Shown one piece after another: positions 37,689-39,819 of a stretch of DNA of 64,000 nucleotides (positions are counted from its first letter, which is position 1; every line of letters begins with the position of its first letter). The notes under the pieces were generated by a model. The model was not told the DNA's origin. It made no database searches and was given only the letters and a program-made list of their open reading frames with translations. The translations under genes were made by a program, and so were the position numbers. The stretch is from the NCBI RefSeq assembly GCF_003991155.1, contig NZ_CP031293.1. One strand, 5' to 3'. The DNA comes from Escherichia coli (lineage in GTDB: Bacteria; Pseudomonadota; Gammaproteobacteria; Enterobacterales; Enterobacteriaceae).

Positions 37689-38337
37689 TATATCTCCTTA
37701 TGTTAATTATTATACATGGAGTAATACAATTATTCTCATCAGTCAAATCATAAAATTATAATAAATTCCATGAGTGGGTAAAGCTCAGTAGAAAAATAAA
37801 ATAGTGCAACGCATGTGATAGTATTTACTAACCAAAAACATCTGACACTCTCCGCGTTACTTATTTTTGCGCATTCGTGATTTTATTTTCACCTATCAAT
37901 TTTTAACTCTATTTTTCAATCTCAACCTGTGAATTGTGCAACACATAACACTCTCTGTTTTATTGGTTTTTTTCATCAAATTTAGCTATCCCGCCTTACG
38001 GCGGGAATAATTAATACCTCTTTTGCCCTTACGGGCCTTTTCTTTACTCTTTTTGTCCTGTGGATGTGAAACCTACACCTTTAATCCAGTTTGCGCCGCT
38101 TATTCCGGCGTATTATTTTACAACAATACATATATTTCGTATTAATTGATAAGAGGGGCATTTTACATTGGCTTATTTTCTTAAAGACAATGCCCACCTA
38201 TACACTGCGTAGCAGTGTGTGGGGTCTACCGACGGTTGCCTGCCGCAGGCTAAAAGCAAAACCAAGGTCAACGTCAACCCCGAAGTTTTTCTGACGAAAA
38301 ACTAACAGCAGCATTTATATTTGAGGTTATATTTTTA

Positions 38338-39819
38338 ATGGCGATTTTTCATCTGGATTTTAAAATTGTGAAACGAAGCGAAGGCATGACTTCTGTTGCG
38401 AAAGCTGCCTACCATGCCCGTACACGTATTACGGATGATCGCATTGGAGAAACATTTGATTTCAGCCACAGAACAGATCTTCATGGTCATATTATATTGG
38501 CACCTGTTTCCGCACCCTCTCATATTGTTGAAAGCTCCTCAACACTCTGGAATGAAGTTGAAAGAGTGGAACGCCAGAACAATGGTCAAACAGCCCGTTA
38601 TTTTGATGTCGCTATCCCCGTAGAACTCAGTAATGATGACAAGAAAAAATTGGTTGCTGAATACTGCCAGAAGAACTTTGTTGATAAGGGAATGATTGCC
38701 GATATCGCATTTCATGATTTAGACGGTAAAAATCCCCATGCTCACGTTATGTTAACCCTGAAAACTGTTGGTCCCGAAGGCTTCGGTAAAAAAGACAGAA
38801 GCTGGAATGATAAGAAGATAATGATCCAATGGCGTGAGTCATGGGCCACGATGTCAAACAGCTACCTTGAAGCTATTGGAAGTGAAGAACGTATCGATCA
38901 CCGTTCTCTCAGGACGCAATGTGCTGATGCCCTTACCCAAGCAGAAGAAGCATTCAGCGCTGAAGAGAAAGCATTCTGGCTTGCCAAGGCAACAGAAACA
39001 AACCGCCCGGCAATGCAGCGTGTTCATCGTGCTAAATGGAATAACACCGAGTCTCAGGAACAGCGAGCTGCTGAACAAGCTCAACGCGATCATCAAATTG
39101 AGGAAGCAAAGAAGGTCTACACTACATTCAGTGAGCTACCACTGGAAATCGTGGTTGATGTTCGCTCTTACTCTGTTTACCAGCTTCCTGAACCGGAAGA
39201 GATCGTTCTCCCTGACTTCCCAGCTACAACTAAACAGCAACCTGTTTCAGCGACACCAGCCATAAGCAGAAGACCAGCAGCAAAATCTTACCGTGATCCC
39301 AGTAAGGTCAGTAAAGTAAATGTTTCAGGGAAGAAATCCCCTGTTCTGGTTGCGCCTGAACCAACTGCATCCACTAAATTGAAAACCCCATCTCTTCAAA
39401 AAACCAGAGCGATGAACCGCGCTCCTGTGAGGAGTAGGAAACAGACCAAGCCCCGCCAGAATGGTTTGTTTAAACGTTTCACGCTACTGATAGTAGGATA
39501 TATAAGAGAGAAATTTATCTGGGCCAAAAGGAAAGCAGATACCACTGATGCTGACCATGACAAGCGTATCGCAGAGAACTATATCTATGATGAAGTGCTG
39601 GGTGTCAATGTTCCACGTTCGGAGTTTGAAAAACGTACCAAATTTAACAATGGTGACTATAAATTAACACCTGATGAAATCAAGCGTTTCCCAAGCCGTC
39701 CTAATCAGGAACAGCCGGAAGTTAATAGAAGCATAGATCTCACACCTTCAATGCCACCAGAACACATGAGGCAAGGAAGCGCGCCAAAACTGAGTCCACC
39801 GAGCCATAAGAGACATTAA
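38338..39819 (+). CDS. mobA: MobA/MobL-family (MobQ-type) conjugative relaxase (493 aa)
   Basis: N-terminus MAIFHLDFKIVKRSEG...AAYHAR and HxH motif NPHAHVML typical of MobA relaxases; basic C-terminal tail. Confidence 0.8.
   Translation: MAIFHLDFKIVKRSEGMTSVAKAAYHARTRITDDRIGETFDFSHRTDLHGHIILAPVSAPSHIVESSSTLWNEVERVERQNNGQTARYFDVAIPVELSNDDKKKLVAEYCQKNFVDKGMIADIAFHDLDGKNPHAHVMLTLKTVGPEGFGKKDRSWNDKKIMIQWRESWATMSNSYLEAIGSEERIDHRSLRTQCADALTQAEEAFSAEEKAFWLAKATETNRPAMQRVHRAKWNNTESQEQRAAEQAQRDHQIEEAKKVYTTFSELPLEIVVDVRSYSVYQLPEPEEIVLPDFPATTKQQPVSATPAISRRPAAKSYRDPSKVSKVNVSGKKSPVLVAPEPTASTKLKTPSLQKTRAMNRAPVRSRKQTKPRQNGLFKRFTLLIVGYIREKFIWAKRKADTTDADHDKRIAENYIYDEVLGVNVPRSEFEKRTKFNNGDYKLTPDEIKRFPSRPNQEQPEVNRSIDLTPSMPPEHMRQGSAPKLSPPSHKRH

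Follow-up and report, generated by a model that had tools for sequence, protein, structure and literature searches.

A predicted transfer origin upstream of the MOBQ relaxase gene of the Escherichia coli serU island

The window analysed here is a stretch of 64,000 nucleotides of E. coli DNA, and the region described below, around the relaxase gene mobQ, is likely to be the DNA-processing module of an integrative mobilisable element (IME), the serU island. The mobilisation module of this island (MobQ, TraD and a transfer origin) is already described, and the main claim is nothing new; the predicted fine structure, namely an invariant 35-nt block and hairpins whose loops favour the minus strand, is new detail. 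By sequence comparison, the most likely location of the transfer origin (oriT) is about 200 bp downstream of those hairpins that an initial annotation of this DNA had favoured.

The relaxase and its island

The island ends and the genes considered here are as follows.

30925-30938: left direct repeat TGGCGGAGAGAGGG, a copy of the tRNA-Ser 3' end; one island end
31103-32323, plus strand: island tyrosine integrase (Pfam Arm-DNA-bind_3, Phage_int_M and Phage_integrase; RefSeq annotation)
35526-35831, minus strand: traD-like gene, 101 aa (Pfam TraD, 8.9e-11), product a probable relaxosome accessory protein
38338-39819, plus strand: mobQ ORF, 493-aa MOBQ relaxase, protein start MAIFHLDFKIVKRSEG
Residues ~1-208 of the mobQ product: relaxase domain, with Tyr25 and H126/H134/H136
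52861-52950, minus strand: tRNA-Ser(cga), serU; the right direct repeat, at the other island end, is the 3' end of this gene (52861-52874)

On family scores and aligned residues, the 493-aa ORF encodes an intact MOBQ relaxase. Its product passes both curated models of the MOBQ (MobA/MobL) family, Pfam MobA_MobL PF03389 (183.2 bits, cut-off 26.7) and NCBIfam MobQ NF041496 (248.3 bits, cut-off 200), and is named 'MobQ family relaxase' in RefSeq. The closest solved structure is that of NES, the relaxase of pLW1043/pSK41 (PDB 4HT4; 7e-24, aa 2-187), and the product also aligns to MobA of RSF1010 (2ns6, 1e-8). Tyr25 aligns with the catalytic position of both relaxase domains, and H126, H134 and H136 (FHDLDGKNPHAH) align with their His motifs; Tyr25 and the His-motif residues are invariant across three diverged homologues. 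The initial annotation had read a MobA-type relaxase with an HxH motif, and both the family scores and the active site bear this out: HxH is H134-A-H136 within NPHAHVML, H126 lies upstream, and Tyr25 and H126/H134xH136 are all present on alignment. The C-terminal half contains no recognised domain and differs from that of NES, which comes from a Gram-positive conjugative plasmid. The N-terminal domain also matches the TraA_Ti model TIGR02768 (1.3e-50, 172.5 bits), but the score is below the cut-off of 590 and the match is limited to residues 1-225, so that a Ti-type TraA relaxase/helicase identity was rejected.

The gene resides in a 21.95-kb (21,950 bp) island located at tRNA-Ser(cga), beside mtfA, and flanked by 14-bp repeats of the serU 3' end; its GC content is 37.9%, against 45.9% for the window. 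In size, in site and in its two CDSs annotated 'H-NS family' (one full length, one of ~80 aa), it agrees with the serU island of pathogenic E. coli, which is ~22.5 kb, lies at serU, and encodes the H-NS homologue Hfp/H-NSB plus a truncated H-NST (PMC7074111). The ROD21/EARL islands and the published serU island are likewise ~22 kb and of low GC (PMC7074111, PMC6035254), and have a similar gene set: type IV pilin genes, TraD, a MobA/MobL relaxase, full-length and truncated H-NS homologues, and an integrase. The relaxase and TraD of these relatives were described earlier (PMC7074111, PMC6035254). The EARL islands proper differ from the serU island in their integrase and in their insertion at Asn-tRNA (PMC7074111); since the present island is inserted at tRNA-Ser, it is a relative of the EARL (ROD21-like) islands and not a member in the strict sense. 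Excision has been reported for ROD21 and IE3 (PMC7074111, PMC6035254), and, as reviewed in PMC6035254 (citing PMC3976249), conjugal transfer of ROD21 is reported only with the helper pSLT, an F-like plasmid, present. The papers searched on the serU and ROD21/EARL islands contained no mapped oriT.

No gene for a coupling protein (T4CP) or a type IV secretion system (T4SS) was found among the island CDSs in the RefSeq annotation of an identical genome, in agreement with the initial annotation. By sequence, the island therefore has the composition of an IME: an integrase, att repeats, a relaxase with a predicted oriT, and no T4CP or mating apparatus. The earlier proposal of a mobilisable island that needs a helper gains support from the relaxase, the intact ends, the integrase, TraD, and the literature (PMC6035254, PMC7074111). 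Alternatively, the module could be a decaying remnant that has lost transfer: only pilS and pilV remain of the pilus genes, without assembly genes, two extra ORFs lie between traD and the oriT region, and one island gene is frameshifted in RefSeq. However, mobQ, traD and the integrase gene are all full-length, the att repeat at each end is intact, and the non-coding signals are much more strongly conserved than synonymous sites. In addition, the island is found in 808 of 5426 complete E. coli genomes (about 15%), at several divergence levels. We consider decay very unlikely.

The predicted oriT core

Between the end of a minus-strand ORF (37688) and the mobQ ATG there is a leader of 649 bp with 35.6% GC, which matches the AT-rich leader of ~650 bp noted initially. 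The region upstream of mobQ is syntenic in 40 related loci across Enterobacterales. The features that define the predicted origin are the following.

38188-38223, minus strand: predicted oriT core, consisting of the hairpin ACACTGC-tac-GCAGTGT (38218 to 38202) and then ATAGGTGGGCATTG (38201 to 38188)
38192-38193, minus strand: predicted nick, TAGGTGGG/CATT, by homology to the RSF1010 nick TAAGTGCG/CCCT
38162-38191, plus strand: promoter-like TTTACA-N18-GACAAT (9 of 12 consensus matches), with a comparable arrangement in small plasmids

On the plus strand, the core hairpin reads ACACTGC-gta-GCAGTGT (38202-38218) and is extendable to 38197-38223. When it is read on the minus strand together with its left flank (38188-38201), the arrangement becomes hairpin-ATAGGTGGG/CATTG, which aligns in register with the RSF1010-type oriT (hairpin-GGTAAGTGCG/CCCT), with the invariant columns TA-GTG-GC--T. 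For this comparison, the MOBQ nick consensus was taken from PMC3832669 and the RSF1010 nick from PMC4814116, and the RSF1010 oriT sequence was confirmed by its presence in 121 IncQ-type plasmids. Of the 12-nt MOBQ core, 8 of 12 positions are matched here and 9 of 12 in most relatives, the CCCT part not being conserved. Note that about 1.5 such matches per leader, taken alone, are expected by chance; the case for the predicted oriT is built on register, orientation and conservation. As to orientation, the nick strand is opposite to the mobQ coding strand, upstream of the gene, and reads toward the divergent accessory gene, as in an IncQ1 plasmid. The comparison with known MobQ oriT sequences, which had been suggested as a check, favours 38188-38223 over the hairpins with TTAC loops described below.

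Small enterobacterial traD-mobQ plasmids (for example NZ_AP022392.1, NZ_CP129619.1 and NZ_CP032894.1), which are autonomous replicons of 3.4-4.2 kb, carry the same module with the same predicted nick region and hairpin. Their layout is traD and a hypothetical gene on one side and, divergently across ~240 bp, mobQ on the other; the relaxase domain is 48-57% identical and the island TraD 34% identical to its plasmid counterpart, while no relation was detectable between the 121-aa ORF upstream of the island traD and the equivalent plasmid ORF. Islands and plasmids have in common AATGCCCACTTAYAC, a fully compensated hairpin, and GTGG after the hairpin. A single copy of the 15-mer AATGCCCACYTAYAC lies upstream of mobQ in 43 of 48 loci, among them the small plasmids, and the stem of the core hairpin shows full compensation between families. 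The next hairpin in the small plasmids is homologous to the island hairpin H2, with diverged sequence. Because islands and plasmids have the hairpin and its flank in common, and because the RSF1010 match is in register and in the same orientation, a minus-strand nick is predicted between 38193 and 38192, with mobQ transferred last.

The base of the core hairpin is conserved and its tip is variable, as expected if the relaxase touches the base only (PMC4814116). At one stem position, 26 of 39 sequences have G.T when read on the minus strand but A.C when read on the plus strand, and the minus-strand loop is GAA closed by C-G in 28 of 40 loci, like that of the RSF1010 hairpin. The outer extension of the hairpin, which contains T.G pairs, fits the plus strand better and counts against the minus-strand model. 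In the covariation test, three pairs are changed on both sides, against a mean of 1.4 in shuffled alignments (33 of 500 shuffles reach three), but the test is weak because most paired columns never vary. Since the -10 box of the promoter-like site at 38162-38191 overlaps the predicted nick region, the site is a candidate for mobQ; the promoter assignments are based only on matches to the consensus.

Compared with the MOBQ archetype, MobA-oriT of RSF1010/R1162, the module has in common a single-Tyr N-terminal HUH relaxase (Y25, HxDx..PHxH), an oriT (predicted in the island) that lies immediately upstream of the relaxase gene, on the strand opposite to it, and is directed toward the divergent accessory gene, and a GAA-loop hairpin followed 8-9 nt later by TAAGTGxG/C. 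The core itself is TA(A/G)GTGGG/CATT, where RSF1010 has the CCCT form given above. Unlike RSF1010, the module is chromosomally integrated, has a TraD-like accessory protein, no primase fusion and no MobB/MobC, and has extra conserved hairpins flanking the core. The Dtr module of Ti plasmids (traA/oriT/traC-traD-traG) also has a TraD homologue divergent from the relaxase with oriT between them, but the island module lacks a helicase domain and a TraG coupling protein and has no detectable TraC.

Conserved elements around the core

Further conserved elements lie on both sides of the core.

37923-37943: conserved 21-mer CAACCTGTGAATTGTGCAACA, overlapping a minus-strand promoter-like site (TTCACA at 37933)
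37990-38005: hairpin A1, CCCGCCTTACGGCGGG, CCCGCC-TTAC-GGCGGG
38025-38036: hairpin A2, GCCCTTACGGGC, GCCC-TTAC-GGGC
38093-38111: hairpin A3, GCGCCG-cttattc-CGGCGT and then a T-rich run, terminator-like on the plus strand and kept in one island clade
38219-38253: island-specific invariant 35-nt block GTGGGGTCTACCGACGGTTGCCTGCCGCAGGCTAA, with hairpins GTC-tacc-GAC (38224-38233) and GCCTG-ccg-CAGGC (38238-38250)
38267-38278: direct repeats GTCAAC GTCAAC, with up to four copies in some relatives (alignment)
38284-38303: inverted repeat AGTTTTTC-tgac-GAAAAACT, with near-invariant 8-bp arms and a variable 4-nt centre

A1 and A2 are the two TTAC-loop hairpins in which the initial annotation had placed the nick or relaxase-binding structures; they exist, although slightly to the left of the original 'around 37995-38035', and have in common the 8-mer CCTTACGG, detected as a direct repeat. 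Folded together as a single strand, they reach -13.4 kcal/mol, against -5.85 +/- 1.7 for shuffled sequences (z = -4.4), and the pair is beyond chance because none of 200 shuffles folds as well. A 14-mer core of A1 is exact in 24 loci, every one an island, and A2 covaries to GTCC-TTC-GGAC in other genera. A terminator reading of these hairpins was rejected: a T run follows only A2, and only in this clade.

Although the TTAC hairpins are real, stable and kept in related islands, and GCCCTTACGGG resembles the 3' part of the Gram-positive MOBQ consensus ...GCGCcCTta, we find it hard to believe that they (37990-38036) are the nick or relaxase-binding site. They are missing from the 3.4-4.2 kb plasmids that carry the same traD-mobQ module. 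The spacer beside them, where the nick site would sit, is variable: islands with highly similar relaxase domains differ freely in the 8-10 nt that precede the would-be nick. Moreover, the spacing from A1 is ~20 nt, not 8-9, and the compensated substitution of GCCC/GGGC by GTCC/GGAC in A2 indicates a constraint on structure and not on a nick sequence. Of the earlier oriT placement, what stands in part is the secondary candidate area, 38215-38260; the 'further inverted repeats' noted initially are indeed present, at 38202-38218, 38224-38233, 38238-38250 and 38284-38303.

The block to the right of the core hairpin is even more conserved than the core, which the oriT model leaves unexplained. Its internal 30-mer (38221-38250) is identical in ~30 of 41 loci, and a compensated variant of its first small hairpin occurs in four; the small plasmids lack the block. 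One may ask, then, whether a plus-strand nick lies inside this extremely conserved block, at GGTTGCCTG/CC or GTGGGGTCT/A, so that mobQ would enter first. The former resembles the IncP-type nick ATCCTG/C (RP4 and R388 nicks were taken from PMC4814116), and the latter, directly after a hairpin, agrees with the F nick GTGGGGTGT/GG in 8 of 9 positions (with the F 35-mer GCAAAAACTTGTTTTTGCGTGGGGTGTGGTGCTTT verified). This latter site could make the block a mimic of the oriT of an F-like helper, and PMC6035254 reports ROD21 transfer as dependent on the F-like pSLT. However, the block is absent from small plasmids with a homologous relaxase, the orientation would be opposite to that of RSF1010, and the shared GTGGG has an explanation already, as a mirror image of the nick flank on the minus strand. 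The four loci with the compensated variant have GTGGGCCCT and compensating downstream changes, which preserve the hairpin and not the F-type sequence; the mimic reading of GTGGGGTCT was set aside for this reason. In addition, a C is deleted within GCCTG in five loci, and the G beside the would-be nick is changed in one. A plus-strand nick here thus seems highly improbable, and the minus-strand nick at 38193/38192 remains our preferred prediction.

The arms of the inverted repeat at 38284-38303 are altered in 4 of 42 loci, by no more than one change; the repeat could form a hairpin or serve as an operator. The conserved upstream structure as a whole might also act mostly at the RNA level, as the mobQ 5' leader or as a short antisense RNA over the ribosome-binding site, which would be compatible with the oriT model. 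The promoter-like sites would put 38195-38337 inside the mobQ leader, and there are a minus-strand promoter-like site (38372-38344) and a terminator-like site (38283-38262). The almost complete lack of synonymous change in mobQ codons 8-12 (42 loci), the T.G pairs that lengthen the core hairpin on the plus strand, and the GNRA-type minus-strand loops, which are typical of RNA too, fit this reading. On the other hand, an Rfam scan of 37600-38400 at a permissive threshold identified no family (best hits IMES-3, E = 0.55, and P9, E = 0.78), A1-A3 lie between divergent promoter-like sites and are probably untranscribed, and the covariation is thin. C-GAA-G triloops, moreover, are a hallmark of stable DNA hairpins rather than RNA. 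A mainly RNA-level role is, in our judgement, unlikely.

A different suggestion, which we put forward tentatively and consider only a little less doubtful, is that, beyond an ordinary MOBQ nick site, the ~350 bp around the predicted nick form a set of DNA hairpins on the minus (transferred) strand, possibly island-specific single-strand signals. The minus-strand loops are consistently of the G..A type (GAA, GTAA, GCAA and GTGA). Under this suggestion, A1-A3 would fall in the first ~200 nt entering the recipient, and the 35-nt block would contribute two more hairpins, which are invariant across genera. If true, the hairpins could serve, for example, complementary-strand priming, early transcription, or termination/recircularisation, and such signals would be undescribed for MOBQ mobilisable islands.

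In E. coli, 785 genomes contain the conserved upstream block and 808 the whole region; the block is always chromosomal. A search for the block without mobQ gave no sign of relaxase-less oriT copies, and only three plasmid records matched. Four diagnostic strings from the region had no match in a literature sequence search. A 2026 preprint by Ares-Arroyo et al. reportedly defines computational oriT regions upstream of chromosomal MOBQ genes.

Proposed transfer mechanism and its significance

In the proposed mechanism, MobQ, a single-tyrosine HUH relaxase, would bind the base of the 38202-38218 hairpin on the minus strand and cut 9 nt past it, within TAGGTGGG/CATT, between 38193 and 38192. The protein would remain on the 5' end and leave the cell by way of a coupling protein and T4SS supplied by a co-resident conjugative element. 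Transfer of the minus strand would begin with the DNA left of the nick, so that mobQ would enter last. The TraD-like protein is a likely accessory factor, and the promoter-like site over the predicted nick region may give the relaxosome control over mobQ.

The serU island and its ROD21/EARL relatives are carriers of virulence modulators (H-NS antagonists and TIR proteins) and defence genes. A concrete predicted oriT, with its strand and nick, makes tests of mobilisation and helper range straightforward, and would improve the automated detection of oriT in chromosomal MOBQ elements.

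The island and its relaxase

The window is E. coli chromosomal DNA and contains, between two tRNA-Ser repeats, an island of 21,950 bp (GC 37.9%, against 45.9% for the window) with the following features.

30925: left end, a 14-bp copy of the tRNA-Ser(cga) 3' end that pairs with the tRNA gene
33057-35130, minus strand: pilV and pilS
38338-39819, plus strand: mobQ, 493 aa
43002-45066, minus strand: TIR and SIR2 gene pair (RefSeq annotation)
48023-48568 (plus), 49360-49764 (plus) and 50283-50525 (minus), listed jointly: a RepL-type replication/maintenance gene, one full-length and one truncated H-NS homologue
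52861-52950: right end, the tRNA-Ser(cga) gene
Also in the island: a tyrosine integrase, a TraD homologue (Pfam, 8.9e-11) and a small HTH regulator

It is the published 'serU island' (~22.5 kb), a relative of ROD21 and the EARL islands from which it differs in integrase and insertion site (PMC7074111); the two H-NS homologues are the counterparts of its Hfp/H-NSB and H-NST. A 2.2-kb query matches many complete genomes at 100% identity, where the PGAP label is 'MobQ family relaxase', and is present in 808 of 5426 genomes, with zero plasmid occurrences in that collection.

The 493-aa protein exceeds the cut-offs of Pfam MobA_MobL (183 bits; cut-off 26.7) and of the NCBIfam MobQ equivalog (248; cut-off 200), and among solved structures it comes nearest to the NES relaxase domain (4HT4, 7e-24) and RSF1010 MobA (2NS6, 1e-8). 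Tyr25 and H126/H134/H136 align with the catalytic tyrosine and histidine motifs of NES and MobA and are unchanged in homologues 63-66% identical overall, which bears out the MobA-type relaxase of the initial annotation. Ti TraA resembles MobQ over residues 1-225 only, and comparison with family models and Ti TraA found no helicase domain in MobQ.

Annotation and domain search found neither a coupling protein nor a T4SS among the island genes. In the EARL family, the MobA/MobL relaxase and TraD homologue are conserved, and a co-resident conjugative element is the proposed means of mobilisation; excision was demonstrated for ROD21 and IE3, and conjugal transfer of ROD21 was reported only with plasmid pSLT present (as reviewed in PMC6035254). 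The proposal of a mobilisable island needing a helper is thus correct, yet already published. The serU/EARL papers cited here (PMC7074111, PMC6035254) define no oriT.

Several neighbouring genes were also noted. PilV, the tip adhesin, carries a shufflon-type annotation, and PilS is a type IVb prepilin (Pfam PilS, 6e-28); these are the island's only pilus genes, none for assembly being present, and their products might enter a helper's thin pilus or may be remnants. The adjoining TIR-domain and SIR2-family genes resemble a Thoeris-like anti-phage system. Two ORFs with no family hits (292 aa, plus; 102 aa, minus; 36498-37688) separate the traD operon from the predicted oriT region and are missing at the equivalent position in a Klebsiella plasmid-borne relative. 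To the right of the island, past mtfA, 53942-64000 is a second, separate island: a tRNA-Asn gene, then another tyrosine integrase, a truncated RelE/ParE toxin gene, an IS3 element and type VI secretion genes (Hcp, VasL-domain protein). In Yersinia pseudotuberculosis, the same traD-mobQ module is paired with a different integrase and insertion site; the record is labelled a 'plasmid' (pYPSE1-1, 502 kb) and looks like chromosomal DNA, since the related island there adjoins smpB, recN and bamE.

The predicted origin of transfer

The gap between mobQ and the minus-strand ORF upstream is 649 bp long (35.6% GC). Two TTAC hairpins and further inverted repeats had been reported in it, and all are present, at slightly corrected coordinates:

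37990-38005: hairpin A1, CCCGCC-TTAC-GGCGGG
38025-38036: hairpin A2, GCCC-TTAC-GGGC
38202-38218, 38224-38233, 38238-38250 and 38284-38303: further inverted repeats

Regions containing an oriT have reportedly been derived computationally, in a 2026 preprint, from sequences upstream of chromosomal MOBQ genes. Here, 40 related Enterobacterales loci (proteins mostly ~60% identical) were compared, together with Yersinia and Klebsiella loci. About 450 bp 5' of mobQ is syntenic among related loci and contains several conserved blocks. The motif CAATGCCCAC(C/T)TAT, located ~115-165 bp before the ATG (~150 bp in the window), precedes a hairpin with a variable but fully compensated tip, after which comes GTGGGGTCTACCGACGGTTGCCTGCCGCAGGCTAA. 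A 30-mer inside the latter block is identical in ~30 of 41 loci; identity over the first 390 nt of mobQ in these loci is just ~77% (57% at third codon positions).

Small enterobacterial plasmids (3.4-4.2 kb; relaxase domain 48-57% identical) have as their only mobilisation genes traD, an upstream ORF and mobQ, around a ~240-bp intergenic region. They share with the islands AATGCCCACTTA(T/C)AC, then a hairpin, then GTGG.., after which comes a diverged homologue of the hairpin adjoining the core hairpin in the islands (H2). The plasmid stems differ yet are fully complementary (ACACTCG/CGAGTGT, ACATTGC/GCAATGT, ACGTCGC/GCGACGT). Upstream of mobQ, 43 of 48 loci, small plasmids included, contain the 15-mer of this shared stretch just once.

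On the minus strand, the shared element reads hairpin-(A/G)TAAGTGGG CATT, with TAGGTGGG in the window. For comparison, the MOBQ nick consensus is ..TAAGTGCGCCCT.. (quoted in PMC3832669) and the RSF1010 substrate is CAGTTTCTCGAAGAGAAACCGGTAAGTGCG/CCCTCCC (PMC4814116), a sequence that we confirmed in 121 identical IncQ-type plasmids. In a joint alignment, the RSF1010-type oriT falls in register with islands and plasmids, with invariant columns TA-GTG-GC--T. The orientation also matches: the strand nicked in an IncQ1 plasmid is the one opposite to that coding for mobA, and it runs towards a divergent accessory gene, which is mobC in IncQ1 and traD in the small plasmids.

The minus strand is favoured by three details. 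In 26 of 39 sequences one stem pair is G.T when read on the minus strand and A.C when read on the plus strand (one locus restores G-C); 28 of 40 loci have a minus-strand GAA loop with a C-G closing pair, like the RSF1010 hairpin; and the core hairpin is conserved at its base and not elsewhere, which fits the reported contact of MobA with the base only (PMC4814116). From register, orientation, conservation and these strand details, we predict by homology that the minus strand is nicked between 38193 and 38192. Note that the core in the window matches the MOBQ consensus at 8 of 12 positions, which by itself is not significant without register, orientation and conservation. Transfer would proceed leftward from the nick, and mobQ would enter last. 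A predicted MOBQ-type oriT at 38188-38223 (minus) is better supported than the TTAC hairpins.

In a second copy in Brenneria izbisi (1.8-kb contig), an unrelated hairpin, GTCAAC-TTC-GTTGAC, stands ~170-200 bp upstream of mobQ in place of the core hairpin and the flank that holds the predicted nick. The junction directly adjoins GGGGTCTACC and may be a recombination breakpoint at oriT.

The TTAC hairpins

Together, A1 and A2 fold far better than shuffled sequence (z = -4.4; 0 of 200 shuffles as good). A1 is nearly unchanged among related islands, and the structure of A2 is kept by compensated changes (GCCC/GGGC to GTCC/GGAC). However, this conservation is limited to islands: none of the 24 loci with the TTAC-hairpin core is a small plasmid, and the A1-A2 spacer, where the relaxase would read a nick site, varies freely. 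The hairpins favoured initially are probably not the nick site.

The hairpins are probably not transcribed either, because they sit between promoter-like sites on the minus strand (37933) and the plus strand (38162-38191). A terminator role is unlikely, as the T run after A2 is absent in other clades. On the predicted transferred strand, they would lie within the first ~200 nt to enter the recipient. Their minus-strand loops across loci are GTAA, GCAA, GTGA or GAA, types that recur in the 38284-38303 hairpins and in an optional inserted hairpin. Both as single-stranded DNA and as RNA, G..A loops have unusual stability; the plus-strand versions, TTAC and TTC, are not known to be special. The minus strand may thus have a function when single-stranded, such as priming.

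A 21-mer at 37923-37943, CAACCTGTGAATTGTGCAACA, is kept across genera and overlaps the minus-strand promoter-like site; it may serve the leftward traD operon as promoter or operator.

Fine structure around the predicted origin

A 35-nt block at 38219-38253 is conserved more strongly than the predicted nick region but missing in the small plasmids. Over its first 9 nt, GTGGGGTCT, it agrees with the F nick region GTGGGGTGT/GG at all but one position. As in F, this stretch comes directly after a hairpin, and ROD21 transfer is reported to need an F-like plasmid, so that the block could start with a mimic of a helper oriT. We consider this unlikely, since four loci have GTGGGCCCT with compensating downstream changes that keep a 3-bp hairpin, and GTGGG at the block start is the mirror image of the minus-strand flank.

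Alongside the oriT, the region may also act at the RNA level, either in a structured leader or through a short antisense transcript. Promoter- and terminator-like sites hint at the antisense RNA, as does suppressed synonymous change in mobQ codons 8-12 (TTT AAA ATT GTG AAA; 38359-38373), where such variation is almost nil in 42 loci and adjoining codons vary. Rfam gave zero matches. The same codons coincide with a minus-strand promoter-like site at 38344-38372 (TTCACA-N17-AAAAAT), from which such a transcript could be made across the mobQ ribosome-binding site.
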